Positions 34,400 through 62,299 are shown, counted from the first letter of the stretch. The stretch is 64,000 nucleotides of DNA from a virus (IMGVR_UViG_3300044730_000851:1-64000), one strand, 5' to 3'. Notes: a model not told the origin generated them from the letters alone. A program made the numbers and translations.

Positions 34400-34768
34400 C
34401 TAGTGGGAGTGGCCGACGTTCGCCTTTCCGGACTGCAGCGCCGCGACCGCTACCTGAAGGGCCTGGATGGCCGCTTCGGCAGACTTGAGCCGGAAGAGGA
34501 GGTCTTTGGGGGATCCGAGGTCTGTGTTGCCTTCTCGGTACGTGCCTGTAGTCGATATCTTGCCCAGCCATACAGGGAAGTCCGTATCTCCGGACTCATA
34601 TGTGATCCAGACCTGCTCCCCGGGCTTCGGGAGCACCAGATAGCCGCACGGAACGACCGGCCAGCACCAACCGGTTACGGCCTTCCCGGTCTTGGTGGGA
34701 ATTCTTACCCGGAGCCGTCCCAACTTGTCTGGGTCGCGGTTGTCGTGGACGATGGCCCGCTCCAGCAT
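34400..34768 (-). CDS. Baseplate spike (gpV/gp5 OB-fold)
   Basis: DPDKLGRLRVRIP...W...PKPGEQVW..YESGD..FPVWLG; C-terminal HSH metal tip. Confidence 0.85.
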   Translation of the reverse strand: MLERAIVHDNRDPDKLGRLRVRIPTKTGKAVTGWCWPVVPCGYLVLPKPGEQVWITYESGDTDFPVWLGKISTTGTYREGNTDLGSPKDLLFRLKSAEAAIQALQVAVAALQSGKANVGHSH

Positions 34769-45487: not shown

Positions 45488-46969
45488 TCAGGCGATCGTT
45501 CGCTGGGTCAACTTGATCTTGATGAACTCAGCCGGGTACTGCAGAGCGACCCCGACCTCGACGTTGACGACACCGCTGGCGATATCGGTGGCGTTGTTGT
45601 TCTCGGCGTCGACCTTGATGAAGTAGGCCTCCGACGGAGAGTTGCCGCGCAGTCCGCCATCGGTGAAGAACCCACGGAGGAAGTTGTCCAGGACCGTCGA
45701 GATCTCGCGCCAAAGGTCCGGGGTGTTGTTGCGGAAGATGGCGAATGCCAAAGCGGCTTCCATCTCTTTACTGAGGAAGTCCACTGTGCGGCGGATGTTG
45801 ATGTACCGCGTGGACCGGCTCTGGTCCATCGTCCTCGCGCCCATAACCACGGGACCGGCACCGGGCATCACCCGAAGGGCATTGACCGGATTGAGATCGT
45901 TGTTAAGTGCGTCCAACTCCTCGTTGGAGAGGCTCTTCTCCAAGGCCACAACACCGGGGATGGTGGCCTGGATCCCTGCGGGCGCCCGGAAGACTCCCTG
46001 TGTGGCATCGGTGCCAAGAATGACACCGGCCACCGCACCGGACGGCGAGACCTTGAGGATGGAGTTCTGCGACGCGGATGTGGTGTCCGCAATCCAGACC
46101 TGTGGGTAGTAGACGCCCAGACGGTCACTGTTGACCAGGGAGTCCGCGTAGGTAACGGCCTGCGCGGCGGTCAAACTGGGTGCTGTATCGGCCACCACGA
46201 AGGACTTGGTGTCCTGAGCGAACTCGACCAGGCTCTCGATGGTGTTGGAGTCGGTGACACCGGGGCAGAAGACTACGAAGGAACGCTCGGTCTCCTTGAG
46301 GCGGTTCAGAGCGGTCGAGTAAGAATACGTACCGGTCGTGCCGTCGCCGCCGCCCGAGAGCGTCAGGGTCGGCAGGTTGGCCGGGAGTACCACGGTGGTG
46401 TCGGAACCCCAGGCGACGTTGATGAACTGAGAGCGGACGTTGATGATGTCGGTGACCTCGGTGTTGCCGTGGGTGCCGACGGGAAGGTTGGTGAACGTCT
46501 CCAGAAGGACATCGTCGGTGATGTCGTTGGCGACACCGGCCTCCTGAAGAACCGCGACGTCGTACAGTCCGCGCGGGTTGATCGTGACGCGGACCCGCAG
46601 GCTGTTTCCGTAGGATCCGGACGACTTGGCCGTGAAGTTGAGGTAGACCTCATTAGCAGTGTTGCCGGCGTCGCTGCCGTCACCGAGGATCGCGGCCGAT
46701 GCGGTTGTGGCGTCGGAGCGGATCAGTCGGTTGACGAACAGTTCGCGACCGCCAGCACGGAAAAACATGTTGGCTGCAAACGTTGCCGGGAAGGAACGGT
46801 TCAGGGGACCGAAGACCTTCGAGAACTGGTACCACGACGTCACCGCAGTCGGTGCCGTGGGGCCAGACGGCAAGATGGCGAGCATGGCGCCGGTGGCTGC
46901 AGCAGGGGACTCCGTTGCCACCGGAACCGCAAGGGTCGTCTCCGTGATGGAGACTCCGGGTCGAGACAT
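45488..46969 (-). CDS. Contractile tail sheath protein
   Basis: MSRPGVSITE, YYPQV, PSGAVAG, GVFRAPAG, GARTM, YINIRR and PAEFI. Confidence 0.95.
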   Translation of the reverse strand: MSRPGVSITETTLAVPVATESPAAATGAMLAILPSGPTAPTAVTSWYQFSKVFGPLNRSFPATFAANMFFRAGGRELFVNRLIRSDATTASAAILGDGSDAGNTANEVYLNFTAKSSGSYGNSLRVRVTINPRGLYDVAVLQEAGVANDITDDVLLETFTNLPVGTHGNTEVTDIINVRSQFINVAWGSDTTVVLPANLPTLTLSGGGDGTTGTYSYSTALNRLKETERSFVVFCPGVTDSNTIESLVEFAQDTKSFVVADTAPSLTAAQAVTYADSLVNSDRLGVYYPQVWIADTTSASQNSILKVSPSGAVAGVILGTDATQGVFRAPAGIQATIPGVVALEKSLSNEELDALNNDLNPVNALRVMPGAGPVVMGARTMDQSRSTRYINIRRTVDFLSKEMEAALAFAIFRNNTPDLWREISTVLDNFLRGFFTDGGLRGNSPSEAYFIKVDAENNNATDIASGVVNVEVGVALQYPAEFIKIKLTQRTIA

Positions 46970-48258: not shown

Positions 48259-48843
48259 TCAGGGGTACGAAACGACGCCGCCGTCGTAGATGGTCTCGGT
48301 ACCCGGAGGCTGATTCACGGGCCCTGCGTCCCAGCCCTCGGGGTCCGGAACCCCCATAGTGTCGTTGACCATCTCCTCGGGCTTGACCTGAGTGGACTCC
48401 ACTAGAACTCCCATGTACTCGAAGCCGATCTGCCCTCTCGGGAAGATTCGGTTGGGGGTGAAGATCGAGTCCCGGTACCCGATGCGGTCGACCAGGTGCT
48501 CGTCAGGGTGCGTCTCAAGGCTGGGAATGATCCGGACCATATCGTCGAAGTTGATCACAATGCGCAGGGTGTCGACCGTGTAGAAGCCGCGATCGTTCTG
48601 GAATAGGTTCGCCTGGTAGATCTCGGCGTTCACGACGGGAACCCGGAAAGGCTTCCTCCAAACGCGACCCACCGACGGGGAGCCCACGTCGTAGACCGGG
48701 TCCGTCCCAGACTCTTCCAGGTCGTAGATGTACCAGTCGACCTGTTGGCCCACAGGCCTCTGCAGGTCACGGGAAATGCCACGTCGAATGGACTTGACCT
48801 CAAACTCGGCGTCGAACCGGCCCAAGCCGTGTGATCCGCGCAT
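48259..48843 (-). CDS. Head closure/neck protein
   Basis: DPVYD motif, beta-rich; position before tail completion genes; GGAGG RBS. Confidence 0.6.
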   Translation of the reverse strand: MRGSHGLGRFDAEFEVKSIRRGISRDLQRPVGQQVDWYIYDLEESGTDPVYDVGSPSVGRVWRKPFRVPVVNAEIYQANLFQNDRGFYTVDTLRIVINFDDMVRIIPSLETHPDEHLVDRIGYRDSIFTPNRIFPRGQIGFEYMGVLVESTQVKPEEMVNDTMGVPDPEGWDAGPVNQPPGTETIYDGGVVSYP

Positions 48844-48853
48844 GCGAGGCCTC

Positions 48854-49420
48854 CTATTCCGCCCACCAGTGTCGCACGCGAGGGTGCTCTTCCTCAGGGG
48901 GAAGATCGTTCCAGAACGTCCTAACTGTGACCCTCAGGCCAGACTTAACGGAGGAGGTCTTGTGTAGGTACGGGATAGTTGACGGAAAGAACACGGTGCT
49001 GGGTGCTGTGGGTCGGTATTCAATACTGAGCCTAGGAAAGAAGAGAGACCCCCCTTCGTAGGACCCCGGATTGAGATACGAGACGGACGACGCAATGCGG
49101 TAGCGATCCCACTTCTGGTCGTAATGTTCCAAGATGACGCTTCCAGAGGACCCGCGCACAAGGAGCAACTCCTCGCGTTGTGTAAGGCGGCATCCAGCGA
49201 AGTCTCCGTAGTCCCGCGACAGTGTGGTTAGGTACTCGTCGTAGGCGTCCAGAACGTCTGCCCTTTCTGGTGGTGCTGCGGACAGATTGACGGCTTGGCT
49301 CGCGATTCCCTTGGGCTCTGCTGCGAGGTGCGCCATACCCAACAGGTCCTCAACGAGACTCGTAGGAATCTCATACTCGGCAACTCCGGGGAAGATCTGG
49401 TGTCGCCCAGACGCACTCAA
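48854..49420 (-). CDS. 2OG-Fe(II) oxygenase (prolyl-hydroxylase-like)
   Basis: HYD...YLN..YEGGSLFF...FFPS..PYLH...VKSGLR; TTGA-coupled start. Confidence 0.85.
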   Translation of the reverse strand: MSASGRHQIFPGVAEYEIPTSLVEDLLGMAHLAAEPKGIASQAVNLSAAPPERADVLDAYDEYLTTLSRDYGDFAGCRLTQREELLLVRGSSGSVILEHYDQKWDRYRIASSVSYLNPGSYEGGSLFFPRLSIEYRPTAPSTVFFPSTIPYLHKTSSVKSGLRVTVRTFWNDLPPEEEHPRVRHWWAE

Positions 49421-50148
49421 CGGAACACCTTCTGTTGGCGGTGCTGGTGCTGGTACCCCTGCTCCCACTCTGTTTTAAACACCTGGTCTCGGATCAGCAA
49501 CTCTTCCTGATCCTCAACAAACACCTCGGACGTCCAAGACTGTCGTAAGAACGGAACGACACGCGCGATGGGGGTTCCAGAGGCAATAGTCCCATCGAAG
49601 GTCTCCCGCAACAGAAACGCTATGTTGGTTGGGGACCGCCAGGAGTCGGAATCGACAATGGCGCTGAAAGTACGGAACATGTCCACACCAAAGCCTTCTG
49701 GGTGCGTGATCAGCACGCTAACCCCCCTTGGGGTGTGGATAGTCCAGGGGTTAATCCACTTGTACGCACAGTTCGTGTCGAAGCCGGGCGGCACTGGGTA
49801 CCTACCCAACTGCTCCCTGTCGAAAGTCCCAACCGCGCTGAGTACCCGCCGGGGCGCGGATGTAACAAATACGCGACCGCCAGACGCTCTACGAAAGTTC
49901 ACGTCTACAGGCAGCCTCAGGATGTAGCCAGACATCAACGAATCTCGCGTAGGGGAGCAGCGCTTCACAGTTGGGGCAGATCCTCGGCCCTCTGTTCCAT
50001 AGACAGCGGTTTCCCTCAGCCAGTTGGGTGCCATGGTGGCGGCGGCTGCGGGATGTGGTGCGTTATCGAAGTACCACTGATCGATAGCCCCAAAGCGCAC
50101 CAGACCTACCGGTTTGTCCTCAGGGGAGGGGGACGTAGTGCTGCTCAT
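49417..50148 (-). CDS. DUF6065-like/dUTPase-like-fold protein, paralog 1
   Basis: TVKRCSPTRD..MSGY...PW.I.TP.G.S.LITHP...VDSD...GTPIARVVPF.R..W. Confidence 0.65.
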   Translation of the reverse strand: MSSTTSPSPEDKPVGLVRFGAIDQWYFDNAPHPAAAATMAPNWLRETAVYGTEGRGSAPTVKRCSPTRDSLMSGYILRLPVDVNFRRASGGRVFVTSAPRRVLSAVGTFDREQLGRYPVPPGFDTNCAYKWINPWTIHTPRGVSVLITHPEGFGVDMFRTFSAIVDSDSWRSPTNIAFLLRETFDGTIASGTPIARVVPFLRQSWTSEVFVEDQEELLIRDQVFKTEWEQGYQHQHRQQKVFR

Positions 50149-50803
50149 TCTGTTTGTCCAAGGCTCTGAGCGGCGACACGTCATATGCGACCGTTATGCG
50201 GGGGCCTCCCCACGACCAGTCGCCCATGGCGTGCGGCCACTTGCTCTCTCCGAGGATTGCTCGGTTGTTTCTGTTTTCCACTACGACGATATCTCCGTCA
50301 ATGTTGTAGTGAGTCTGGGAAGGCTCGGCGGTCACCGCGTAGTACCCGTGAAACTGCGGCGCCCCCAGTGGTGAGTGTATGTGCCAGTCCAACTTTCCGG
50401 AATGTGCGTAATTGACGTTGAACCAACCCTGGACCATGAACCGCTGAGATCGGAAGTTCAACTCGTAGTAGTCGCACGCCTCACGCGTCATCTCTCCGAT
50501 AGCCAACAGCAGGTCATATACGTTTGATTCATGGAACTGGAACACGTTGTAGTCTCGCCAGGCAACCGTGGAAAGGGACCCTGAGTCTTCCCACAGGCGC
50601 TTTCCGGATTCGGCTCCCGGGGTTGGACGCCCAAGAGCGACTTCACTGTCCTGGGCCTCAAGGAGTCGGTACTTGGCGAGTAGAAAATCACTGAGGAACT
50701 GCGTATTAAGATCCAGGTCTCTAGTGAAGTGCTTGAACGGTTTGCTTGTCCGCGTGGGCAGCAGGGACCGTCGTCCGGTCAGCGGTACTTTTTGCTGTTC
50801 CAC
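50120..50803 (-). CDS. Putative 2OG-Fe(II) oxygenase (HxH type)
   Basis: GWFNVN...DWHIH...GYY...PH...RITVAYD. Confidence 0.75.
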   Translation of the reverse strand: MEQQKVPLTGRRSLLPTRTSKPFKHFTRDLDLNTQFLSDFLLAKYRLLEAQDSEVALGRPTPGAESGKRLWEDSGSLSTVAWRDYNVFQFHESNVYDLLLAIGEMTREACDYYELNFRSQRFMVQGWFNVNYAHSGKLDWHIHSPLGAPQFHGYYAVTAEPSQTHYNIDGDIVVVENRNNRAILGESKWPHAMGDWSWGGPRITVAYDVSPLRALDKQNEQHYVPLP

Positions 50804-51504
50804 ACGTTCTCCTTGTAGTAGCCGTAGATCTTGGTCCTCTTCTTCTCTAGGAGCATGGCCCCGCTCTCAGCCAACGCATGGTTGGTTTCCAACTTCCAGT
50901 CTTCCCGTTTAAACGGGAGCACTGTGAACATAGGGGTACCTGAGGGGATTGTCCCCTCAAAGTCCTTGCGCAGAAAGAATGTGATGGCGTTGGGAGCCCA
51001 CCATTGGTCAGTGTCTTGGACTCCGCTGTAGGTGATGAACGGAAGGTCATACCGGTTGAGTGGGTGCGTTATCAGACTCGAATACCCCGGAGGTGTTTTG
51101 AAGGCCCAGCGCATGTCCCAGATGTAGTGGGTGGGCCAGCAGCCAGCAGGTACTGGAACCTCGATGTAGCCCCGGGTTTCAATGGGGCGGACGATGGGGT
51201 CCTGCCAAGAGATGTGCGGTCCGTCGTCGTCCACGGCAACATCAATGTCTATAGGAGTGACGTAGTGATAACCGGTCGTCAGGGCGTCTAGAAACGGGGC
51301 GCAGTGCTTGAAACTCAGGTTGGCGGAGTCACGACCGTTCCTATTGCTGACCCCTAAGTCTCGCCTGTCATTCGATGTATGGAACAGGTACGCGTCTCGG
51401 TACCAGGCAGGTACCGACTCATAGGCCGGGCGCGGGGGTAGCGTGATGTCGCGGTACTGGTTGTTTGCGTACGTCTCGATGTGTAGAACTTCGTCCCCGC
51501 TCAT
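50779..51504 (-). CDS. DUF6065-like/dUTPase-like-fold protein, paralog 2
   Basis: FKHCAPFLDALTTGY...KTPPGYSSLITHPLNR...DTD...GTPMF...PFKREDW. Confidence 0.65.
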   Translation of the reverse strand: MSGDEVLHIETYANNQYRDITLPPRPAYESVPAWYRDAYLFHTSNDRRDLGVSNRNGRDSANLSFKHCAPFLDALTTGYHYVTPIDIDVAVDDDGPHISWQDPIVRPIETRGYIEVPVPAGCWPTHYIWDMRWAFKTPPGYSSLITHPLNRYDLPFITYSGVQDTDQWWAPNAITFFLRKDFEGTIPSGTPMFTVLPFKREDWKLETNHALAESGAMLLEKKRTKIYGYYKENVWNSKKYR

Positions 51505-52244
51505 CGGTACTCCTTTCTCGACCAGAAGTTGCTCCGGTATCCGCCTGTGAATACCGACCTAATCCGAGAAGCCTGTCCGTCAATTAGGTCTGCGTCGTAC
51601 TCTCCATGAATCGCGCTGCTCCAGGCCTCCCGAGCAAAGGGGACCACGACCGCTAACGGCGTGCCTTGCTTGATGACTCCTTGGACGCCGCGTCGCATGA
51701 GCAACGAGTACGCCCCATCCGGGGCGTACTGATCGGTGTCCATGACCGCGGGGAGGACCTGCCAAGGGACATCGATTGAGTACGGAGGGTGCGTGATCAT
51801 GACGCTGTAGCCGGGTGGGGTCAGGTATCCCCACAGCGGGTGAATGCGGAAGAGGTCCTCGCAGTATTGTGCCCGGTCAAACGGCAACTCCGATACTTGC
51901 TGCCTGTCGTGAAGGCTGACGACCTTCCAAGACACGTTGCCCTTGGGCAACTGCCATCGAATCCGGTCTCCGGTGGTGTCAATCGAGATATCGACGGGTA
52001 CCTTAAGTAGGTATCCGGTACTCAGTGCGTCGAGAACCGACGGGCACTTCTTGATGGTTTGATTGCCTTTACCGCCCTCGATCTTCATCGAGCCGCCCGC
52101 GTAGACGTCCTGTTCTCGCCACCATGCGGGGATGTTCTTGGACAGAGGCTCCGGCTTTGGGGCATACGTAGGGACACCGGGGGCCACCGGGAAGAACTGA
52201 ATGATTTTGGACGGCTTACTCGAAGTAAACCTAGTACTCAGCAT
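51501..52244 (-). CDS. DUF6065-like/dUTPase-like-fold protein, paralog 3
   Basis: TIKKCPSVLDALSTGY...TPPGYSVMITHP...DTD...IKQGTPLA..VPFARE.W. Confidence 0.65.
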   Translation of the reverse strand: MLSTRFTSSKPSKIIQFFPVAPGVPTYAPKPEPLSKNIPAWWREQDVYAGGSMKIEGGKGNQTIKKCPSVLDALSTGYLLKVPVDISIDTTGDRIRWQLPKGNVSWKVVSLHDRQQVSELPFDRAQYCEDLFRIHPLWGYLTPPGYSVMITHPPYSIDVPWQVLPAVMDTDQYAPDGAYSLLMRRGVQGVIKQGTPLAVVVPFAREAWSSAIHGEYDADLIDGQASRIRSVFTGGYRSNFWSRKEYR

Positions 52245-52983
52245 GGTCTGCGTTCTCGATTCTCGTTGGGGTTACGCGTAGTAGAGCGATTGGTGTGCCT
52301 CGCTTTATGACAACTGGATCATCTTCAGCACCCCGCTTCAGGAGGAACGGGAGGCCGAGAGGACCTGAAGGTGAGTGCGGCCAGGTGAGACGTGCATCTA
52401 ACGTCCTGAAAGGGAGAGAGTTGTCGTCAACTGGGCTACGCACAACGACATCGCAATCGACAGTGGGGCTCCAGTAGATGAGCCACCGGTAGTGTGCGTC
52501 GAAATACCGATCGACTGGGAAGTCTCTCCTGTATCTGACTCCAGTAACGCGTCCTGCGGGCTGGAGCACTGTTCGTGATACAAGGTCCGCGGACTCCGTC
52601 CATTCGGTTCCTACGTCGCTGGGAATTCTTCGTGGTCGGATGAAGACATCGGCAAACAGCCGGACTTCGTACTCACCCCCGGCACTAGGCTCTGGCGCCC
52701 AACTGATTTCAGATACGACTCGGTTGTGCGGCCAAAACTCGTCTCCCCGAGCAAGGGCCTGACGTTGTAGGTCTTCATGAATCTTTCGCTGCCAAGCCTG
52801 TTCCTGGCTGAGGTGAGGGCTGACTGGAAGTTCCCCGCGGACGGCGGTTGGTTGTTGAAACTCGTTGTCGTTGGCCGACATTCTCTTGGACGGACGACCC
52901 AGCATGCGCTCACTTGTCTGCGGGAAAATCGAGCGACGCCGAGTTTCCCCTCCAGGGTCGATTCGTTGGTGATCTGCAGTCAT
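52231..52983 (-). CDS. Divergent dUTPase-like-fold protein, paralog 4
   Basis: YRW...W...LPFRTL...LPFLLK...VIKRGTPIA; lacks the KxC motif. Confidence 0.5.
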   Translation of the reverse strand: MTADHQRIDPGGETRRRSIFPQTSERMLGRPSKRMSANDNEFQQPTAVRGELPVSPHLSQEQAWQRKIHEDLQRQALARGDEFWPHNRVVSEISWAPEPSAGGEYEVRLFADVFIRPRRIPSDVGTEWTESADLVSRTVLQPAGRVTGVRYRRDFPVDRYFDAHYRWLIYWSPTVDCDVVVRSPVDDNSLPFRTLDARLTWPHSPSGPLGLPFLLKRGAEDDPVVIKRGTPIALLRVTPTRIENADHAEY

Positions 52984-53000
52984 GGCGAACGACTCGTTAC

Positions 53001-53834
53001 CTATGCGTCTTCGGGACCTATGCCGTTCCACGTCAGCATGTGTTCGGTGAAAAAGAGGTCGTACGGTTCACAGCGAAGTGAGATCACCTCGGTACCTGAC
53101 GTGAGCGGGACCGACTCGTAAGTGAGGATGGGTTCCCAGTCATTCACGGAACCGTCGTAGACGAGATCGGAAGGCTCCAACGAGTCAGCGCGAGTCAGGG
53201 TGTAGACATCATTCCTTCTTACAAGAATGTAGTGACTCGGAGAGAACAGATCGCCATTGACGATATAGAGTTCGTCGACCGTAGACCTTGCGATGCTGGT
53301 GACTTCAGTCTCAACAAGTCCTAGGGACGTGAACGAATCGGACTCCCAGGCGAGGGATCCGGACATCGCGGCTAGAAGCGCAGCGTCAGCGTCCGTGCCG
53401 AGTTCTTCGATGTTGAGTGAATAGAGACGGTCGCCTACCTGGACGTCCTCGGCTCGGACGAGCCCCTCGGGCGTACGGACCATGGTGTCGGGGGCTACTG
53501 AGTAGTCGTGGTTGAACGAAAAGCCGAAGCCACCGTAGAAGCCGAAGCCACCGTAGAAGCCGAAGCCACCGTAGAAGCCGAAGCCAGGGTACACATAGTT
53601 CCAACGGCTGATCCCGACGGCCGACCCTCGCAGAACCACCGCTCCAGACGCGACTCCTTGGCTGATGACCTGCGTATCTATGCCGCTGTTGCTGGTGTTT
53701 GAGGTGGTCTCGCTACCCAGACTCAGACCGACGTTGGTCAGGGCCGTGATCGCGTTCGCACGGGTCTGTCCGACAATGTTGGGGACCGTGGTTTTGCGCG
53801 GTCCGCCGCGGTCAAGGTTGCGTGATGTCGACAA
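53001..53834 (-). CDS. PASTA domain - (YGGFGF)n repeat - Hint (intein-like) domain protein
   Basis: VPNIVGQTRANA...L...GL...VISQ...G.AV (PASTA); YPGFGF(YGGFGF)3; SVAPDTMVRTPEG...VQVGD...SPSH...VISL.CEPYDLFF...LTWN (Hint blocks A, B, F, G). Confidence 0.8.
   Translation of the reverse strand: MSTSRNLDRGGPRKTTVPNIVGQTRANAITALTNVGLSLGSETTSNTSNSGIDTQVISQGVASGAVVLRGSAVGISRWNYVYPGFGFYGGFGFYGGFGFYGGFGFSFNHDYSVAPDTMVRTPEGLVRAEDVQVGDRLYSLNIEELGTDADAALLAAMSGSLAWESDSFTSLGLVETEVTSIARSTVDELYIVNGDLFSPSHYILVRRNDVYTLTRADSLEPSDLVYDGSVNDWEPILTYESVPLTSGTEVISLRCEPYDLFFTEHMLTWNGIGPEDA
53521..53586. repeat. Perfect 18-bp tandem repeat (3.7 copies)
   Basis: AAGCCGAAGCCACCGTAG x3 + AAGCCGAAGCCA. Confidence 0.95.
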
Positions 53835-53862
53835 CTTCTTCTCCTACTGGTTGCGAGATCTA

Positions 53863-56800
53863 TTACGACAGGTCACCGGTCAGGACCCACACGTTGGCGG
53901 CCCGCTTCGTGAGCGTAGCCCCGGACCACTGCGCGCGAAGGTTCAAACCTGGCGTCGCATTGATGGTCACACCGCCAGCGGCGGCAATGTTGACGCCACC
54001 GGCACCCACCCGCAGGAGGTGGATCTGAGTACCCACCTTGAAGTTGACGGTAGCGTCTGCTGCAACCGTGAACGTAAGCGCGGAACCGCTGTTCATCTCA
54101 ATCATTCGTCCGGCGTCGCTCAGAACAAACTGATACGAAGCCGTCTTCTGGTCAATCACCACGGGGGCGTCCAGAACGTTACCGGCCGCCAGCGTGATGC
54201 CACCACCGGTCACTGACAAGCCGCCCGAAGAGATCGTGACAGTGGTGAGCGTCGGGGAGGTGCCGAACACCAGGGCCCCGCTGCCCGTCTCGTCCGAGAT
54301 CACTCCGGCCAGTTGGGCGGATGTGGTGGCCGCGAACTGATTGAGCCCGCTGGTGGTCAGGCCGAGGCCGGTCGTGGCGTGAACGTGGTCCGCTCGGGCG
54401 TACCGGAGCGACGTGCCCACGGCAGCGGTGCCGAGTGCCGCGGGGGTTGCCGCCGAGGCCTGGCCCACAACAAACGCCGTGGTTGCCAACTGGGTGGTGT
54501 TGGTGTCTGCAGCGGCGGTTGGTGCTGCAGGAATACCCGTCAGGGTGGGCGATGCGATCGGTGCCTTCGCTGCAAGATCCGAAACCAGGCCCGTGATCGC
54601 GCTCTGCGCAAGTGCGATGTTCGTGCTGGAGACGCTCGTCACACGACCCTTGGCGTCAACTGTGATGGCCGGTACCGCAGTAGCGGAGCCGTACACTCCA
54701 GCAGTCACTCCAGAATTGGCAAGTGTCAGAGTGATACCAGTCGTTCCCGAACCGGTGGCGTCACCAGAGACAGAGATACTCTGGTTGGCCGTCAGGTACG
54801 TATTTGTGTCTAGGGACCACGTATCGGCGGCCGTCTTCCGTAGGATGCCGCTGGTACCTGCGAGGGCCGCGATGGCCGTGAGGTCGGCATCCAGAGGCTG
54901 CTTACCGGCCAGCGAATTCGTGAGTGTGGTCGCAAACGACGCATCATCGTTGATCGCGTCCGCGAGTTCGCTGAGGGTATTCAGGGCCGCGGGAGCGGCA
55001 CCGATGAGGTCGCTGACGGCCCCAGTGACGAATGCTGTGGTGGCCACCTGAGTGGTGTTGGTGCCCGCGGTAGCAGTGGGCGCGGTCGGAGTACCAGTCA
55101 ACTCCGGAGACGCAAGCGACGCCTTACCCGCAAGAGCCGATGCCAGGCCAGTGACCTGCGACTGCGTGATCGCGATATCTACCGACGACGCTGCCGTCAC
55201 GCGACCCTTGCTGTCCACGGTGACCTGAGCCACCGAGTCGGCATCACCGTAGGTTCCCGAGTTTACGCCGCTGTTGGCTAGGGTGGCCGTGATGCTGGTG
55301 GCACCGGATCCGGTGATATCACCGCTCAGGGTCACTGTCTGGTTCCCGGTGAGGTACGTAGACGTGTCCAGCGACCATGTGTTGGCGGCCGTCTTCTTTA
55401 GCAGACCGCTGTTCGCCGAGATCTCGGCGATCGCGGTCAGGTCGCCATCGAGAGGCTGCTTTCCGCTGAGTGCCGTCTGCACCGTGGTGTGGAAGGACGG
55501 GTCATCGTTGATGGCCGCGGCCAGTTCGTCAAGGGTGTCAAGGCCAGACGGCGCTGAACCCCTGAGGCTGCTGATACTGGCATCGGTGTACGTGTTGGCA
55601 GCGCTTTCGGCGGCGTCGGCTTTGGAAGTTGCATCGGCAGCGGCGGTGGCTACTGCAGCACTTTCGGCAGCGTCCGCGTAGCCCTGAAGTGCGTTCGTGG
55701 CTGTAGCGATCTCTGCGTCAGTGTACCCGTTTGCAGCACTCTCGGCGGCGTCTGCCTTGGACTGAGCCCCGGCCGTGGTTTCAAGGAGCGACGTGTTCGC
55801 AATGCCGTGCACGTTGGTGGTGCTGGCGTTGTGGTTGCTCAAGGCCGTTCCAGCGCCATTCGCGGCGTTGGTAATCTGAGTGTTAAGGTTGGACATAGTG
55901 CTGTCGACGGCGCTGTTGATGGTGTTGTTTAGTACGACAACTTCCGCATCCGTGTAGTTGTTTGCTGCGGTTACTGCGTCGGTCTCCGCCTGATCCGCGT
56001 AGTCTTCAAGGTCACTTACTGCAGCCGCGAGATCACTTGCAGCCGTGCTGGCGACCGACGAAATCTGGCCCGCCACGGAAGTGGAGAACTCCGGGTCGTC
56101 ATTGATCGCGGCTGCCAACTCGTTGAGGGTGTTCAGGAGTGACGGCGCGGCGTCGACGAGGCCAGAAACTGCCGCGTCCGCGTACGCCTTGGCGTCCACC
56201 TCAGCCTGATCGGCGTAGGCTTCAAGGGCAGCCGTCGCGGTAACAATCTCCGCATCGGTGTAGGCGTTCGCAGTGTTCACGGCGTCGATCTCAACCTGGT
56301 CGGCGTAAGCCTCAGCGGCCTCTCGCTGCCCGAACGCATAGGTCTGAGCAGCACTCAGTGCGTCTGCCTCAGCCTGATCGGCGTACGCCTCAAGAGCCGT
56401 CGTGGCTGCAGAGACTTCGGCGTCCGTGTAGGCGTTCGCTGCCGTGACGGCAGCACCTTCGGCAGCGTCCGTGTACGCCTCTAGAGCGTCCACTGCGTTA
56501 GCGAGCGTGCTATCCGTGTACGTCTGCGCGGCTGATGTGGCCGCTGACTGCGCTGCGTTCGCCTTGGTTGTGGCGTCAGTGGAGGCCGCAGATATGGCGG
56601 CCGCCTGCGCTGCGTTCGCCTTCGATGTCGCATCGGACGCTGCGGTCGATACGGCTGCGGCCTGTGCTGCGTTTGCCTTCGACGTAGCGTCTGCTGCGGC
56701 AGTAGAGATGGCAGCCGCTTGGGCAGCATTGGCCTTGGATGTGGCATCGGTCGCAGAGGTGGCTACAGCGGCGGCCTGGGCAGCGTCCGCCTTGGAGGTG

Positions 56801-57540
56801 GCGTCTGCTGCAGCGGTTGATACGGCCGCGGCCTGGGCTGCATTGGCCTTGGATGTGGCATCTGCAGCGGCAGTAGCGACTGCGTCTGCCTCGGCCTGGT
56901 CTGCGTAATCTTCAAGATTGGCCACTGCGGTGGCGATATTCGTGGCGACGGTAGCCGCAAAGTTTTCGTCGTCGTTGATCGCAGCCGCAAGTTCGTTGAG
57001 AGTGTTAAGGGCTCCCGGTGCTGCCTGGATCAGGTCAGCGACCTGGGTGTCGGTGTACGCGTTTGCGGCAGCCTGAGCGGCGTTTGCTTTCGATGTCGCG
57101 TCGGCTGACGCGGTAGATACAGCCGCAGCCTGGGCAGAGTTAGCCTTAGACTGCGCTCCGGACTGAGTCTCCAGAAGAGCGGTGTTTGCAATGCCGTGGA
57201 CATTCGTGGTTGCTGAAGTATGCGTGTTGAAGTTGCTGCTCAGCGTGACGACGGATGAGAAAAACGCTGGGTCATCATTGATTGCGTCTGCCAGTTCCCC
57301 AAGGCTGTTAAGGACCGACGGGGCGTCCCCGAGAATCCCAGCCACTGCTGCGTTCACAGCGGAGGTCACGTCCTCTGGCCGAGCGTTTGCGTACAGGAGC
57401 GTCGTCCATGCCGTGAGACCGTCACCCACCTTAAACTTGCGAGTATCGAGTTCGATGCCGATCTCGCCCTGAGCCAGGATGGGATTCGCTGCGGTCCATG
57501 CAGCCGCGAGTCCTCGACGAATCTGAATCTGAACAGCCAT
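53863..57540 (-). CDS. Long fibre protein (Mtd_N-like N-terminus, coiled-coil and fibre repeats)
   Basis: IQIRRG.AAAW...NPILAQGEIG.E.DT.KFKVGDG...W; five AP..LxxLxELAxAINDD motifs; 19-aa repeats; ASP.LTG.P.APTA...NTTQ.ATTAFV twice. Confidence 0.85.
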   Translation of the reverse strand: MAVQIQIRRGLAAAWTAANPILAQGEIGIELDTRKFKVGDGLTAWTTLLYANARPEDVTSAVNAAVAGILGDAPSVLNSLGELADAINDDPAFFSSVVTLSSNFNTHTSATTNVHGIANTALLETQSGAQSKANSAQAAAVSTASADATSKANAAQAAANAYTDTQVADLIQAAPGALNTLNELAAAINDDENFAATVATNIATAVANLEDYADQAEADAVATAAADATSKANAAQAAAVSTAAADATSKADAAQAAAVATSATDATSKANAAQAAAISTAAADATSKANAAQAAAVSTAASDATSKANAAQAAAISAASTDATTKANAAQSAATSAAQTYTDSTLANAVDALEAYTDAAEGAAVTAANAYTDAEVSAATTALEAYADQAEADALSAAQTYAFGQREAAEAYADQVEIDAVNTANAYTDAEIVTATAALEAYADQAEVDAKAYADAAVSGLVDAAPSLLNTLNELAAAINDDPEFSTSVAGQISSVASTAASDLAAAVSDLEDYADQAETDAVTAANNYTDAEVVVLNNTINSAVDSTMSNLNTQITNAANGAGTALSNHNASTTNVHGIANTSLLETTAGAQSKADAAESAANGYTDAEIATATNALQGYADAAESAAVATAAADATSKADAAESAANTYTDASISSLRGSAPSGLDTLDELAAAINDDPSFHTTVQTALSGKQPLDGDLTAIAEISANSGLLKKTAANTWSLDTSTYLTGNQTVTLSGDITGSGATSITATLANSGVNSGTYGDADSVAQVTVDSKGRVTAASSVDIAITQSQVTGLASALAGKASLASPELTGTPTAPTATAGTNTTQVATTAFVTGAVSDLIGAAPAALNTLSELADAINDDASFATTLTNSLAGKQPLDADLTAIAALAGTSGILRKTAADTWSLDTNTYLTANQSISVSGDATGSGTTGITLTLANSGVTAGVYGSATAVPAITVDAKGRVTSVSSTNIALAQSAITGLVSDLAAKAPIASPTLTGIPAAPTAAADTNTTQLATTAFVVGQASAATPAALGTAAVGTSLRYARADHVHATTGLGLTTSGLNQFAATTSAQLAGVISDETGSGALVFGTSPTLTTVTISSGGLSVTGGGITLAAGNVLDAPVVIDQKTASYQFVLSDAGRMIEMNSGSALTFTVAADATVNFKVGTQIHLLRVGAGGVNIAAAGGVTINATPGLNLRAQWSGATLTKRAANVWVLTGDLS

Positions 57541-57545
57541 GGTGG

Positions 57546-57998
57546 TTACACTCCTCCGGCATCGACGACGACGGTGTGCTCTGACGTGGTGTCGCCGCCG
57601 CTCATTGTCTTGGCAAACGTAAACTGCTGGTTGGACGAACCTCCGTCGACGTTCGGGAAGTTGGTCGTTGTGGATCCGCCGTCAAAGGAAACGGCGCTGA
57701 CGCTGTACGGCGAGTCACCCGAGTACGAGACGGTCTGTTCTTGGATGTATAGGAATCCGTTGCGGAAGGCGATCTCCCCACCATCTAGCGATTCGGTTAG
57801 GCGCAGAAGGTCACTGTCGTTGAAGTCGTCGGAGGTATTTGTGCCTCCGCCGCCACCGGACACGGTGTTCCAGGTGGCACCGTCGAATACCCGGAGGGAG
57901 TGCGTAGAGATGTCATAGTAGAGGTCGCCAGCGTGCTCGCCGATGGGCTCGGAGCCCACCGCGAGTACGTTGAGAGGTACGTACGATCTCTTGGACAA
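57546..57998 (-). CDS. Fibre adaptor-like protein with repeated DGG motifs
   Basis: GDLYYD...VFDGATW N-terminus; LDGG, FDGG, VDGG, VDAGG. Confidence 0.6.
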   Translation of the reverse strand: MSKRSYVPLNVLAVGSEPIGEHAGDLYYDISTHSLRVFDGATWNTVSGGGGGTNTSDDFNDSDLLRLTESLDGGEIAFRNGFLYIQEQTVSYSGDSPYSVSAVSFDGGSTTTNFPNVDGGSSNQQFTFAKTMSGGDTTSEHTVVVDAGGV

Positions 57999-58014
57999 CT
58001 ATGACTTCCCAGTT

Positions 58015-59337
58015 CTAGCCAACGACCACGGCGCGGAAGGTGCCCGATGCGTGGAACGTGAGGGTTACGGTGTTGGCGTCGGTGCGGACGATGTCGCACT
58101 CAACCTCAGCGAACGTGGAGGCGTCGTAGACCTGGACGGTCACGTCTCGGTTGCCCAGGCTGTGCGTCAGGGTCTGGGTGACAGGTCCTGTCGTAACCGT
58201 GGCTGTGAAGTCCGAGAAGATCTTCTTGTAGGCCACGACAGTGGTGTCGACTGCCACCGCATCGGCGCTGACCGTGAGGCCGGTGCCGACGACGAGGTCG
58301 AGGCGGTTCCCGTCCTTGGTGAGTCCGTCCCCAGCGGTGATCTGACCGGCGCCCGAGAACTGGACGAAGTCGAGTTCGGTGGTGTCGAGGGTCACAGCGC
58401 CGTCGCTGACCAGGACCCATCCGGAGTCGGCGTTGACGGTGCCTTCCTCGACGAACGTGAACATTCCGGGTCCGACGTTGGCACTGCTGTTAGCGTCAGC
58501 GGAACGTGACCACGCACCCGCGGCTACGACGTAGATACCGTTATCCGCGGGATCGAACTGATCCTTGACGAGGACGCGGTTTCCAGCCGAAAGGATGACG
58601 CCGTCGATCGTCTGGGCACCGCTCAAGGTGATGGGGTCACCAGTGGTGGCAGCCCGAACGGACAACTTGACGTCGAGGCCCTGGCTGACGGAGTCAACGT
58701 AGCCCTTGGTGGCGGCGTCGGTGTCCGCCTGTGGCTCCGCGAGGTTGGTGATTCGGTTGTCGTTGGCATCGATGTCGGTGTTGGCGGCTGTGGTAAAGGA
58801 CTGCAGGGTCTTGTCGTCAACGTAGGACTTAGTGCTGGCGTCCTGCGGGTTAGTCGGCTCGCCAAGGGAGATGATTTTGAACCCGGAGATGTCCAGGTCG
58901 CCGTTGGCCGCCGAGAGGTCGCCGAGTGAGATGCCCGAGTGCTCGTCCGGACCATGTGCGTGCTTGTGGTCCGATCGGGCGTAATTGGTCGAGGTGCCGT
59001 CGACGTTGGTCCCGGTGTTATCGAGGGCAACCGGAGTACCGAAGTTGCTGACCTGGTCCCAGGACGACCCGTTGTCGTAGTACAGGACCTTGGTATCAGT
59101 AGCAAAAAAGAAGCGACCAATCGAACCCGCAGCGGGCCGCGCGGCGATCGCCGAGGCCACGATCTTTCCTACGGGCTGCCAGGTGGCGCCGTCGTAGACA
59201 AAGAGGGTGTCCGACTGCGTGTTGTAGTAGACATGGCCCTCGCCCCTAGGCGTCGGAGCCGAAGCAAGATTCTGGAACTTGACGTTCTGGATCTCAAGGC
59301 CATTGAGATCGATGGGCGTGTAGTACTTACGGGCCAT
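58015..59337 (-). CDS. Neck/head fibre or decoration protein
   Basis: ITNLAEP..DTDAATKGYVD, VRAATT..ITLSG.QTIDGV...RVLVKDQ...NGIY. Confidence 0.7.
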   Translation of the reverse strand: MARKYYTPIDLNGLEIQNVKFQNLASAPTPRGEGHVYYNTQSDTLFVYDGATWQPVGKIVASAIAARPAAGSIGRFFFATDTKVLYYDNGSSWDQVSNFGTPVALDNTGTNVDGTSTNYARSDHKHAHGPDEHSGISLGDLSAANGDLDISGFKIISLGEPTNPQDASTKSYVDDKTLQSFTTAANTDIDANDNRITNLAEPQADTDAATKGYVDSVSQGLDVKLSVRAATTGDPITLSGAQTIDGVILSAGNRVLVKDQFDPADNGIYVVAAGAWSRSADANSSANVGPGMFTFVEEGTVNADSGWVLVSDGAVTLDTTELDFVQFSGAGQITAGDGLTKDGNRLDLVVGTGLTVSADAVAVDTTVVAYKKIFSDFTATVTTGPVTQTLTHSLGNRDVTVQVYDASTFAEVECDIVRTDANTVTLTFHASGTFRAVVVG

Positions 59338-59349
59338 AAGTCAACTCTC

Positions 59350-59628
59350 CTAAGACAGGTACGCGTTTCCGCTGAAAGGTGCCGAGAAAATGACCCGTAG
59401 TCGGTACTTGGAGAGATGCTCAATCTCTCCTTCTGCGATTGACCCCGACGAATCCATTGTCGTGACATTGGGGTAGAAGCCGAGATTGTGCTCGATGTCC
59501 CAAGTATTGCTCGAAATTCCTTGGACGTGGTGGTAAGCGTATGCGGCGGGCAAAGTATTTGCCTCGACGACCGCAATCGTTACGATTTGCTCTTGCTCAA
59601 CTGTGATGGGGATGCTCTCTTCGGACAA
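59350..59628 (-). CDS. small structural protein (HNLG motif)
   Basis: WDIEHNLGFYPNV...F...FSGNAYL; similar to the C-terminus of 58015..59337. Confidence 0.65.
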   Translation of the reverse strand: MSEESIPITVEQEQIVTIAVVEANTLPAAYAYHHVQGISSNTWDIEHNLGFYPNVTTMDSSGSIAEGEIEHLSKYRLRVIFSAPFSGNAYLS

Positions 59629-60747
59629 CTAGACTCCTCCTCGCCAACTCACGGAGTACTGTTCCCAACCGGTCGGTGAGAAGTTGCCCTGCGGCGCCTG
59701 CTCCCGAGTGACCTGCCGCTTGCAGAAGACCGTGCCCGAGATGTACGTCTTGACGTTCTCGGAGTCATTGTTGGCGGTCAACTGAACGTCCCAGTACGCC
59801 CGCAGTGGCAGCCTCTTGGTCTGATCCGGGGTCAGTGACAGGCGAATCTTGCCCTGCGCGGCGTCTTCGATGCTGGTCTCGAACTGTGCCGCGTACACGG
59901 CCGACTCTGGGTACAGGCGGATCTGCGCCAGCGGGGTGAATCCGGTGACGTCGATCGAGAAGTCGAGCACGACACTGTAGGAGTCCCCCTGCGTAAGTAC
60001 GATGTCGTACCGTCCGGATGCCTCCCCAACGGGTGTCGTTCCGTATGTAGGAATAGGCAGGAAGAGCCGCTGTGGCTTGGATCGGTCGTCGACCTCCTGC
60101 GGCATGTACACGGGAACGTACCTGTTCGTCATGCGGCTGATCCTGCGGAAGGTGAGGACCTCGATCCGCTCGATGCCGATGTTGAGGGCCTTGCAGAGCG
60201 TCTCGTACTGCTGCCTACGCTCGACGATCATTTCCATGATCTGGCGATACCGCTCAGACCGGGGGATACCAACCCCGTCCGGGGTGGAGATATCGATGTC
60301 GAACGCGGCGTCGGTGGCCAATGTATAGAGGGCCTGCACCGTACTCAGCAGCGTCAGTGGATACTCTTCGACGGCCGGAAGGTTGGCCAAGGTCAGTACT
60401 CGGCCGAACTGGTCCTGTCGGTTATGGACGTGCTGCTGAACGGACGTGTCTATGTACGCATCGATCTCGGAGTCTGTAAAGAATCGGTAGTAGGTCCCCT
60501 GGACGGTAATCTCAGCACCCTCGGCGGGAGGGCTGTCCAGTGTGAGCACACCGCTGTGCTCCTCGACCTCGGTGTCGTCGGAGACGTCCACACCGTTGAC
60601 GAATACCTGTACTGAGGCCCCGTTCAGCGGAGAGTACGGTATTTCGTATCTCTGCAGACCCGCCGAACGGGTGCCCCAGACGAAGGACTTAGGGGGGTCG
60701 TTGAGTTCGGTTCTCACGCGAGAACGCAGTGCGTCAACCGTTGCCAC
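59629..60747 (-). CDS. Head-tail adaptor with C-terminal Ig-like (BppU-like) domain
   Basis: LRSRVRTELND...FFTDSEI; QGDSYS...AQIR...IRLSLTPDQT...YWDVQL; GAGGAGG RBS before GTG 60747. Confidence 0.7.
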   Translation of the reverse strand: MATVDALRSRVRTELNDPPKSFVWGTRSAGLQRYEIPYSPLNGASVQVFVNGVDVSDDTEVEEHSGVLTLDSPPAEGAEITVQGTYYRFFTDSEIDAYIDTSVQQHVHNRQDQFGRVLTLANLPAVEEYPLTLLSTVQALYTLATDAAFDIDISTPDGVGIPRSERYRQIMEMIVERRQQYETLCKALNIGIERIEVLTFRRISRMTNRYVPVYMPQEVDDRSKPQRLFLPIPTYGTTPVGEASGRYDIVLTQGDSYSVVLDFSIDVTGFTPLAQIRLYPESAVYAAQFETSIEDAAQGKIRLSLTPDQTKRLPLRAYWDVQLTANNDSENVKTYISGTVFCKRQVTREQAPQGNFSPTGWEQYSVSWRGGV

Positions 60748-60810
60748 AAGACCTCCTCGCACCCAGTACCTATAGTGAGGAACTGGGGCGCGGTTGTCTC
60801 CCTATAAGAA

Positions 60811-61182
60811 CTACGCGGTGTAGAGGTAACCCAGGTCTTCGAGATGATCGGCGAGATCAGTGGGGACCTTGTACTTCACACCGGCCTGAAACGAGTAGTC
60901 GTTTCCGTAGCCCCAGGTCATCATCTCGATGTCGGCGACCAGGCGCACGATTCGGGTGTTGTCCGCGAGATCGACGTCGCCGACCTCCACGATCTCGTCC
61001 ACGACCGTCGTGGGCGCGTCCACCTTTGGGTCGCGCACCTCGTTCTTGATTGCCACAGCCTCTGCCGCAGCAATTGTGGACAACTCTTCCTGACGAGCCG
61101 CCAACTCGTCAGCGTTCTTCTTGATGGCCCGAGAGCGTGCCACGCCTGTGGCATCGGTGGGCTTGGGACGGGAAATGGCCAC
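60811..61182 (-). CDS. Capsid-associated hypothetical protein
   Basis: Immediately after the capsid gene; AAGGAG RBS; Y.F..G.KYKVP..LA.HL...GY. Confidence 0.7.
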   Translation of the reverse strand: MAISRPKPTDATGVARSRAIKKNADELAARQEELSTIAAAEAVAIKNEVRDPKVDAPTTVVDEIVEVGDVDLADNTRIVRLVADIEMMTWGYGNDYSFQAGVKYKVPTDLADHLEDLGYLYTA

Positions 61183-61213
61183 GGTGATTCATTCTCCTTG
61201 TTCGTAGGTCGAA

Positions 61214-61250
61214 GGGGACGGGAGCAGCCTTGTGAGCCGCTCCCGCCCCC
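61214..61250 (-). terminator. Hairpin after major capsid gene
   Basis: GGGGCGGGAGCGGC-tcacaag-GCTGCTCCCGTCCC on the minus strand, followed by CTT. Confidence 0.65.
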
Positions 61251-61267
61251 GATAGTGCTGTTTGAAA

Positions 61268-62299
61268 CTAGTTGGTGAGGACCTTGTTGATAGCGATGTC
61301 GGTGATGATGCCCTGACCCCAGATGCCGTACCACGCAATGGCGTGCTCGCGGCCGAAGTCAAGAACGCCGCCGTCGCGCAACTCAACCGGGAGGCTGATG
61401 GCGTGACCGAAAGCGTTGTCACCGATCATGATCGCCTCGTAGACGTTCGAACCCGCGGTAGCGGTATTGTCAAACGTCGACTCCCACGGAGCCTTGCCGC
61501 CCTTGGCGAGGCCGTTGCGGACCTGCGTCGTCTCAATAAACACGACGTCGTAGAGACGGCCGATCTCACCGAGCATGAAGTTGCCGGGGGCGGCGTACTT
61601 CGTGACCTCGATGAACTCGGGAACGTCGCGCAGACGACGTGACTGGTGCGGGTGCACGAAGCAGACGTAGGTCTCGCCCAGACGCGGGATGTTTCGGGAG
61701 GCCAGGGTCTCGACCGAGTCCTTGACAGCCGCGGTCGTGAGGTAGAAGTCACCCGAGACACCGGTGACACCGGCCTTGGTGCCGACCGTACCTGCGTTGT
61801 ACCAGTCGTTGACGCCCGAGACGCCGGAGCGGTCGTAGCCATAGATCTGGCTTGTGGCGCCACCGAGGGTGTCACGCGACTGGTTGTCGAGGTACTGCGC
61901 CATGTTGCGACCGAGGAGACGCGAGGCCGAGGCCATGACGTCGTCGAAGGACGCGTTGAGCAGCAACTCCGAGACAGCAACGGCGTAGCCGTGCTCGGCG
62001 ACGGTGATCTGGATCTGCTCCGCCGTGAGGGCGCGCGTGGTCATACGCACACCTTCAGTCAGCGGAGTGTTCTCCGGCTGAAGGTTGATGTAGCGCAGGA
62101 AGTTGATCTGCAGACCGGGCGCAACTCCGAGTTCCGTCTTCTTGACGGCAAACTGCTCGAAGCGCAGGATGGGCATGGCCTGGAAGAGGATTTCCTTCGA
62201 CCAGATGACCTGGATGGCCTGCGTCAACTGGCTGTTGGTGCCAGAGTACGCGGTGGGGGCAGCGGCAAGATTGCCGGTGCCGGTAAGAGCGCTAGCCAT
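61268..62299 (-). CDS. Major capsid protein (N4-gp56-like, HK97 fold)
   Basis: PILRFEQFA, LTEGV, EHGYAV, YVCFVHPHQ, GEIGRLYDVVFIET, DFGRE..IAWY; GAAAGGA RBS. Confidence 0.92.
   Translation of the reverse strand: MASALTGTGNLAAAPTAYSGTNSQLTQAIQVIWSKEILFQAMPILRFEQFAVKKTELGVAPGLQINFLRYINLQPENTPLTEGVRMTTRALTAEQIQITVAEHGYAVAVSELLLNASFDDVMASASRLLGRNMAQYLDNQSRDTLGGATSQIYGYDRSGVSGVNDWYNAGTVGTKAGVTGVSGDFYLTTAAVKDSVETLASRNIPRLGETYVCFVHPHQSRRLRDVPEFIEVTKYAAPGNFMLGEIGRLYDVVFIETTQVRNGLAKGGKAPWESTFDNTATAGSNVYEAIMIGDNAFGHAISLPVELRDGGVLDFGREHAIAWYGIWGQGIITDIAINKVLTN

Follow-up and report, generated by a model that had tools for sequence, protein, structure and literature searches.

A Hint-Terminated Repeat Protein Encoded behind a Long Fiber Gene in an Uncultivated Myovirus, and the Linked Cassette of dUTPase-Fold and Oxygenase-Like Genes

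In many aquatic phages a long fiber gene is followed by a gene for a protein ending in a Hint domain and then by a run of enzyme genes, an arrangement of which we found no description in the literature searched. We analyzed it in IMGVR_UViG_3300044730_000851:1-64000, a 64,000-nucleotide stretch (the window) that opens an IMG/VR virus record of 76 kb. The source virus is a contractile-tailed phage, an uncultivated myovirus. On the minus strand of the window, the gene for a 277-aa protein (53001-53834) follows a fiber gene (53863-57540) and precedes a cassette of six genes that encode P1 to P3, which have a dUTPase-like fold, their remote relative P4, and the oxygenase-like proteins 2OGa and 2OGb. 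A preliminary description of the window had recognized this run of genes, which is indeed present with overlaps or gaps of at most 30 nt from 57540 down to 48854. It had interpreted the run as resembling the pathways of ribosomally synthesized and post-translationally modified peptides (RiPPs), and that interpretation is partly supported. The reading that we favor, tentatively and at a little under an even chance, is that the 277-aa protein is a fiber-tip accessory or adhesin maturing by Hint self-cleavage, and that the enzymes form a mobile late cassette whose candidate substrates are fiber-associated proteins.

The 277-aa protein consists of a PASTA domain, an aromatic/Gly repeat linker and a C-terminal Hint domain. 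The PASTA domain (aa 16-73, 53616..53789) matches PF03793 with an E of 1.1e-7, above the cut-off, and is modeled with a predicted local distance difference test (pLDDT) score of ~95. The low-complexity linker (aa 80-111, 53502..53597, pLDDT <50) reads YPGFGF(YGGFGF)3SF. Tandem Repeats Finder (TRF) places here, at 53521-53586, a perfect 18-bp x 3.7 tandem repeat that encodes YGGFGF (100% matches, score 132), and the repeat of the window is a recent expansion. In the AlphaFold model, built on 30 homologues, the PASTA and C-terminal domains are confident and residues 84-108 are disordered. A periodic structure of the polyglycine-II or collagen type was considered for the repeat, as the hexamer of the window has Gly at every third position. 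A common periodic structure is unlikely because the repeat periods of relatives are 4, 5, 6 and 8.

The Hint domain (aa 112-270, 53025..53501) is followed by a 7-aa tail and is modeled with pLDDT >90. Foldseek and residue conservation assign it to the bacterial intein-like (BIL) type. The best Foldseek match is the Clostridium thermocellum BIL domain 2lwy (E 3.3e-8, target template modeling (TM) score 0.81, probability 1.00). Further matches are Tetrahymena BIL2 (6y75), the DnaB and gp41-1 inteins and the Hedgehog domain HhC (1at0), with E values against BIL/Hint structures ranging from 3e-8 to 1e-4. By sequence the domain lies below threshold for every Pfam Hint model, Hint_2 coming to E 0.049 and 14.5 bits against a cut-off of 28.4. 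One relative gave an Intein_splicing match at E 0.083.

Residue conservation was read from an alignment of 65 distinct Hint domains, taken both from database proteins and from related loci. At position 1, 53 of the 65 have Ser, one has Cys and five have Trp; six more are Cys-type N-termini that the hidden Markov model (HMM) left unaligned. A block-B His is present in 61, and 63 end in Asp or Asn. Asp-ending inteins are active. The penultimate residue is His in 33 domains and the +1 residue Ser in about half. Ser/Cys1, the block-B His and the terminal Asp/Asn are each retained in 82-97% of the domains at 30-40% overall identity, and about half of the family carries the full S1...TxxH...H-D|S signature, with which known inteins splice or cleave. 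Judged by these residues and by the structure matches, the Hint domain is probably catalytic and self-cleaving, in agreement with the preliminary description. Canonical Cys1...His-Asn signatures, their N-termini again unaligned by the HMM, were seen at L117 (2-610) and at loci L078, L091, L112 and L124, where the preceding sequence consists of GV repeats, or of PFGVFGFS repeats with an additional segment containing Cys.

In the window the corresponding residues are Tyr111|Ser112, S198-P-S-H201 and Trp269-Asn270|Gly271, after which six residues remain. Splicing requires a C-terminal His-Asn with Cys, Ser or Thr at +1, which this domain lacks; because of the Gly at +1 it cannot splice. The domain lies at the extreme C-terminus of its cargo, as in Hedgehog, and for that reason N-terminal cleavage or acyl transfer is predicted instead of splicing. 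N-terminal cleavage, acyl transfer from a Tyr111-Ser112 ester and possibly Asn cyclization are all candidate reactions. Most likely the domain would form an ester at the bond before Ser112 and cut itself off. The mature product would then be a binding domain with a sticky aromatic tail, presumably associating with the C-terminal domain of the fiber.

Alternatively, the Hint domain could have no catalytic role and act as a structural or chaperone module that docks or folds the fiber tip, with the protein staying intact. The subthreshold Pfam score would fit such a role, as would the penultimate residue, where about half of the family has Trp, Phe or Tyr in place of His. The domain of the window itself carries Trp, not His, before the terminal Asn and no nucleophile at +1, which counts against cleavage. 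So does a subclade (P0008, P0010-P0012 and L056 at 9992-10810) whose position 1 is Trp and in which the block-B His is mostly gone. Catalysis is thus not universal in the family. This Trp1 subclade retains the repeat and its P4-P-P-2OGb neighbors, and its members are probably non-cleaving variants by their residues. It is also the Hint domain, not the variable N-terminus, that is the conserved partner of the C-terminal domain of the fiber. We nevertheless regard a non-catalytic role as unlikely for the family, given how widely the three catalytic positions and the full signature are kept.

How widely this type of protein occurs was surveyed by profile search. At least 306 protein clusters, all metagenomic, share a PASTA or FN3 domain, a variable aromatic/Gly/Pro repeat and a Hint domain. 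None is functionally named, the database labels being 'hypothetical', 'PKD repeat' and 'chitodextrinase'. A protein search with the Hint protein gave only a marginal match in an Erwinia jumbo phage. The commonest architecture is FN3 (with a PKD or Ig-like domain), repeat and Hint; the PASTA form is a minority. The repeat and the Hint domain stay when the N-terminal domain is exchanged between the PASTA and FN3/PKD types, and relatives reach 944-950 aa with folded domains. The repeat lies almost always between the N-terminal domain and Ser1, and its unit is specific to the clade (YGGFGF, HYGGFS, GFYHGF, NPGF, PFGFT, GAFGAF, PFGVFGFS, PPGFFA or FFPP). Within the 138 loci retrieved, aromatic/Gly repeats are nearly exclusive to Hint proteins. 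One clade (L028, L033 and L037) has a Pro/Ile/Val-rich linker without an aromatic repeat. Two Hint-terminated genes a few kb apart were seen at L025 (2502-5336 and 9536-10894), L027 and L116. The first of such a pair is up to 944 aa with a long N-terminal extension, and only the second directly precedes the enzymes. By their sequences, the proteins appear modular and of the surface type, with an N-terminal binding domain, a fast-evolving aromatic/Gly/Pro tail and a C-terminal BIL-type Hint domain. These features fit an exposed, fast-evolving virion or adhesion protein and not a RiPP precursor.

The enzyme genes are closely linked to the Hint gene. In 44 of the 47 distinct Hint loci with enough sequence, a P gene, an oxygenase gene or both are found in the 6 kb downstream and usually begin within 20 nt to 0.7 kb of the Hint gene. 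The three exceptions are extra upstream Hint copies, and the second copy in the same loci precedes enzymes. The claim that a repeat+Hint gene consistently adjoins the same enzyme families in divergent phages is therefore borne out. The order of the enzymes depends on the clade: P4-P-P-2OGb, 2OGa-2OGb-2OGa, 2OGb-P-P-2OGb-2OGb-2OGa-2OGa, P alone or 2OGa alone. As order and content differ in this way, the linkage has outlived extensive reshuffling among proteins 30-40% identical. Among uncultivated aquatic phages the module is widespread, and its carriers are probably uncultivated freshwater myoviruses.

Three of the four proteins that the preliminary description listed as dUTPase-like paralogs are clearly of one family. 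P1 (51501..52244, minus strand like all cassette genes) matches phrog_7084 at E 4e-36, is DUF6065-related and has a model pLDDT of 87.7. P2 (50779..51504; phrog_7084 E 9.5e-29) and P3 (49417..50184; E 4.6e-28) are 36% and 30% identical to P1. The fourth, P4 (52231..53031), is a degenerate remote relative that aligns by hhalign with the P-family alignment A2 over its C-terminal half (probability 93.9%, E 1.6e-7). P4 lacks the KxC and DTD motifs of the others and is probably non-catalytic on this basis; its position after the Hint gene is kept in the Tyr/His-repeat clade. The P1 model has a dUTPase fold, with a best VIA-align Z of 10.7 (3h6x, root-mean-square deviation 3.1, 120 residues aligned) and a Foldseek E of 4e-4. 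In an exhaustive structural search with P1, the top 22 chains (Z >=6) were dUTPases, dCTP deaminases and herpesvirus dUTPase-related-domain proteins. P1 to P3 gave no match to Pfam dUTPase or dCTP deaminase models, and the P family profile gave none among Protein Data Bank (PDB) sequences.

Eighteen columns are invariant in the P family, including Lys-x-Cys, Asp, Gly-Tyr, Trp, Gly-x-Ser, Asp-x-Asp, Gly-x-Pro, Pro and Arg. Such conservation points to a site for ligand binding or catalysis. Read by eye in alignment A2, D-T-D and G-T-P..Q stand at the positions of dUTPase motifs III and IV; motif V, the glycine-rich arm, is not recognizable. DUF6065 (PF19541) matches 6 of 24 aligned P relatives (best E 1.8e-5) and is carried by 12-23% of the members of Atlas clusters. 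The P1 to P3 proteins of the window do not match the DUF6065 Pfam model at E <=0.1, and no paper in the literature searched mentions DUF6065. Close P homologues lie on contigs binned into metagenome-assembled genomes from Lake Mendota. In HF1-group haloarchaeal myoviruses, P homologues end the tail-fiber region and lie beside ribonucleotide reductase (RNR) or thymidylate synthase (PMC7230728).

The two proteins described earlier as 2-oxoglutarate (2OG)-Fe(II) oxygenases with intact ligands differ in how firmly they can be placed. 2OGa (48854..49468) is prolyl-4-hydroxylase (P4H)-like and matches PF13640 at 27.4 bits against a cut-off of 27. Its family profile finds the Bacillus anthracis P4H (2e-14), P3H1 and the PBCV-1 P4H (1e-9) in the PDB, and its metal triad H115, D117 and H169 is invariant in 15 relatives. 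By sequence it has the HxD...H triad and basic 2OG-binding residue of a double-stranded beta-helix enzyme, and it belongs to the protein prolyl-hydroxylase group. 2OGb (50120..50803) matches phrog_2696 at E 3e-7 and conserves H141-x-H143, H152, H191 and R202 (alignment A3). It has no Pfam, NCBIfam or PDB sequence match. Its nearest Atlas clusters carry PF13759, 2OG-FeII_Oxy_5, a 'cyanophage protein family' (feature score 0.96, TM 0.77), and these language-model and structure neighbors suggest a tie to that family. Comparison of the 2OGa and 2OGb profiles showed no relationship. By eye, no collagen-like substrate for the P4H-like enzyme was seen in the neighboring fiber proteins.

What the enzymes act on is less clear than their linkage. 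In the reading we favor, the mobile cassette, which is found behind the Hint gene and also travels without it, would modify, for example hydroxylate, late fiber-associated proteins, the repeat tail being the most plausible candidate substrate. It is quite possible, though, that only the Hint protein is a fiber accessory and that the P and oxygenase genes are an unrelated auxiliary or 'moron' island, prone to insertion after fiber genes and acting on nucleotides, DNA, the host envelope or small molecules. Several observations weigh on that side. With at least 584 matches in IMG/VR, the P family is much larger than the Hint set. Among the best 80 P-anchored loci, found with the P-subfamily alignment, P occurs with an oxygenase in 67 and a Hint gene is present in 23. 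Of the 43 P-anchored loci with at least 6 kb of upstream sequence, 29, about two thirds, have the enzymes without a Hint or repeat gene, so that the pairing proposed earlier holds in one direction only. Set beside the 44 of 47 Hint loci, this count indicates that the Hint gene requires the enzymes as neighbors and not vice versa.

The surroundings of the Hint-less cassettes also differ, with genes for a carbamoyltransferase, an endolysin, a nuclease and an Asp/Arg hydroxylase. All of these come together in L066 (3897-17448), from a different phage lineage, where P-P-x-2OGa-2OGa lies between the terminase region and a NodU/CmcH-like carbamoyltransferase. On the terminase side are a PA14-domain protein and a protein of 486 aa, which has a HEMWH (HExxH-type) motif and an N-terminus resembling a signal peptide; on the far side are also an endolysin, a protein similar to Asp/Arg beta-hydroxylases and a homologue of staphylococcal nuclease. 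In cyanophage S-RIM44 a P homologue follows a 3497-aa structural protein and has tryptophan halogenases as neighbors; this is the known plastic region ahead of the neck genes. Bacterial P homologues, in non-phage contexts, adjoin porins or an ABC transporter; a PHP-domain protein occurs there as well, and these contexts are uninformative about function. The dUTPase fold of P, with DTD at the motif-III position, suggests a nucleotide ligand and not a protein substrate, and it provides no precedent for peptide tailoring. The repeat of the window holds one Pro, a poor fit to a prolyl hydroxylase. The GC content of the cassette, 2.9 points under the rest of the window, would likewise suit an inserted island.

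Other evidence argues against an unrelated island. Adjacency in 44 of 47 Hint loci, across clades 30-40% identical and with the enzymes reshuffled, is unexpected from chance insertion. The enzyme cassette keeps recurring beside fiber or large structural genes, and P also follows an unrelated Cys-rich tip gene. The closest solved relatives of 2OGa hydroxylate proteins, and by sequence P resembles no genuine dUTPase or dCTP deaminase. In addition, the nucleotide and DNA genes of the phage (RNR, TGT/DpdA-like, PolA) cluster 30-50 kb away from the cassette.

We also compared the repeats with the enzymes that accompany them. In the 45 residues before Ser1 the mean number of Pro is 8.0 in loci with a 2OGa no more than 6 kb away (n=25) and 3.1 in loci without one (n=22), and Tyr/His-rich repeats accompany P4-P-P-2OGb. 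The window, with its single Pro and a 2OGa present, is an exception to the Pro trend. A tree of the Hint domains offers three well-supported independent contrasts, five in all, and 2OGa changes in the same direction in most and the opposite direction in none. With 3-5 independent pairs the co-variation falls short of significance, a point against the favored reading. The co-variation of repeat composition with enzyme set, which the preliminary description had proposed to test, is thus visible as an underpowered trend, a lead and not evidence.

A strict RiPP-like pathway, in which six enzymes would tailor the repeat as a core peptide and the Hint domain would release or ligate it, so that it ends up on the fiber as a chemically modified adhesin, would draw on this trend of Pro-rich repeats with a P4H-like enzyme. 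It would also draw on the linkage of repeat+Hint to the enzymes, on the active-looking Hint domain and on a hypervariable, recently expanded repeat. We consider it very unlikely all the same. There is no leader/core architecture, and the Pfam, NCBIfam and PHROG scans revealed no recognition element, class-defining enzyme, protease or exporter. The supposed precursor is a protein of 277-950 aa with folded PASTA or FN3 domains. Loci L028, L033 and L037, which have no aromatic repeat, still have P and 2OGa directly after the Hint gene, and the enzymes are common without a repeat gene. Not one of the features that define a RiPP is present. Of the same proposal, the position of the gene directly after a fiber with a conserved C-terminal domain is borne out, and display of the 277-aa protein on the tip of that fiber is an inference.

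That fiber (53863..57540) is 1225 aa long, with an Mtd_N N-terminus (Pfam E 3.4e-12), Ala-rich 19-aa repeats and the conserved C-terminal domain; about 20 of the 30 PHROG families it matches are tail-fiber PHROGs. The 19-aa units are encoded by 57-nt/114-nt tandem repeats at 56539-56876 with 71-78% matches. These 57-nt repeats are diverged, unlike the perfect 18-bp repeat of the next gene. The C-terminal domain, of ~95 aa (aa ~1130-1225, 53866..54153), ends in GDL(S) and is here called the GDL domain. It was delimited by alignment A8 and an HMM and is 42-54% identical in eight relatives. In most loci the HMM matches an open reading frame (ORF) whose end precedes the Hint gene by 10-40 nt, and a tip gene always comes directly after the domain.

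A second GDL pair is present in the window. A 216-aa protein (32935-33585, minus strand), whose C-terminal 95 aa are homologous to the fiber C-terminus (hhalign probability 99.4%), is followed by a different tip-like gene (32051-32968, minus strand) encoding 305 aa with a Cys-rich insert. At L130 and L133 the order is GDL protein, Cys-rich tip gene and, directly after, a P gene. The recurrence of a GDL-ending fiber followed by a tip gene, as in gp37/gp38 or Stf/Tfa, suggests by analogy that the downstream product docks on the GDL domain or is required for it. A complex prediction with three fiber C-terminal domains and the 277-aa protein scored 0.02 (mark 0.32), a result that weighs neither way on binding. 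At L122 (7559-8137) an FN3-type relative with an (A-P-x-Y-Y-A) repeat sits after a GDL fiber and before a P gene; it has a Cys-rich end in place of the Hint domain, which may be a frameshifted or replaced Hint.

If these suggestions are carried to their end, the Hint-made ester would pass the aromatic tail to the fiber C-terminal domain or another acceptor and not to water, the oxygenases would hydroxylate the repeat, and the P proteins would be a new class of nucleotide-dependent (e.g. nucleotide-sugar) transferases acting on the hydroxylated residues. The outcome would be a chemically cured fiber-tip 'glue' co-evolving with the repeat. We offer this as a speculation and think it quite unlikely as a whole.

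In the order of minus-strand transcription, a portal fragment and the major head protein (61268-62299) come first, then three fiber-like genes (59629-60762, 58015-59337 and 57546-57998), the 1225-aa fiber and the cassette. Three small unassigned genes follow, and then the sheath (45488-46969), two tube proteins, a hub-like protein and the tape measure. The baseplate genes are at 34768-36327, and the replication and nucleotide genes at 0-30 kb include RNR, a TGT/DpdA-like gene, a UvsX-like recombinase, PolA and helicases. By this gene order the fiber genes stand between the head and the neck/sheath genes. The fiber-like genes (53863-62299), which are not placed after the baseplate genes, may encode head or neck fibers. 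The product of 58015-59337 matches a 'head decoration' PHROG besides tail-fiber PHROGs. Elsewhere in the window, a 499-aa protein (2941-4440, minus strand) matches phrog_887, queuine tRNA-ribosyltransferase, at E 5e-46. This family includes DpdA-type enzymes, and on that match the phage may carry 7-deazaguanine-modified DNA.

Judged by their spacing, the genes after the Hint gene look like one late transcription unit. Promoter and terminator scans found no promoter-like or terminator-like sites above chance. The Pfam, NCBIfam and PHROG scans of nine genes matched only PASTA, P4H-like, phrog_7084 and phrog_2696 families. For 48259-48843, Pfam and PHROG scans gave no family match, and the 'head-closure' label attached to it earlier was not confirmed. 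A nucleotide search of the cassette against isolate phages gave no match. The GC content of 48854-53834 is 57.5%, against 60.4% for the window, and is the lowest of all 5-kb stretches of the window, at ~3 SD. The dip noted before is thus real and far smaller than the first spot counts had suggested, a modest sign of a separate history.

We found no description of a large family of phage fiber-accessory proteins ending in a Hint domain in the literature searched. Cleavage, if true, would be a new maturation step for phage receptor-binding hardware, and host range would have a new kind of determinant in the hypervariable aromatic tail. The linkage also supplies a testable substrate candidate that bears on the long-standing question of why aquatic phages, cyanophages among them, carry so many 2OG-Fe(II) oxygenases in structural regions. 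It does the same for the DUF6065/phrog_7084 family, found from haloarchaeal viruses to cyanophages.

The components of the locus resemble several known systems, each with differences. Like the trimeric dUTPases and dCTP deaminases, P has the characteristic fold (Z 9-10.7 over ~120 residues); unlike the dUTPases, it is ~100 residues longer, has an invariant Lys-x-Cys absent from those enzymes and occurs as 2-4 tandem paralogs. The P4Hs known from viruses and bacteria hydroxylate Pro residues of repetitive peptides. With those of Bacillus anthracis (5hv0) and PBCV-1 (5c5t), 2OGa has in common the family profile, the HxD...H triad and a YLN..Y.GGE motif, whereas its Pfam score is barely above the cut-off and the repeat of the window has one Pro. 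Similar genes in a similar place are found in the plastic region of T4-like cyanophages, between the giant structural genes and the neck genes, which is likewise rich in 2OG-Fe(II) oxygenases. In S-RIM44 this region holds the P homologue, runs of 200-250-aa hypothetical proteins and the tryptophan halogenases before gp13; neither a Hint gene nor a repeat gene was detected in it.

Hint/BIL domains that cleave themselves have been described in inteins, in Hedgehog and in surface and toxin proteins of bacteria. The domain described here shares with this superfamily the fold, the position-1 nucleophile, the block-B (S/T)xxH, the terminal Asn/Asp and the occurrence in variable surface-type proteins, and with Hedgehog its C-terminal position. 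It differs in having Ser1 and not Cys1, in the Trp-Asn-Gly junction of the window and in falling below Pfam thresholds. It differs as well in its setting, a phage structural operon where it follows a fiber gene and is preceded by a repeat, with no sterol-recognition or ubiquitin-like partner. A parallel for the arrangement as a whole, though no sequence or fold similarity to gp38 or Tfa was found, is with the gp37-gp38 pair of T4 and T2, gp38 of S16 and Stf-Tfa of lambda. Those systems do not have the Hint domain and the PASTA/FN3 modules, and the fiber genes here lie between the major head protein and the sheath and may encode head or neck fibers. As in those pairs, a small gene directly follows a long fiber gene, its product is modular, fast-evolving and marked by Gly-rich motifs, and the conserved C-terminus of the fiber is the apparent docking partner.

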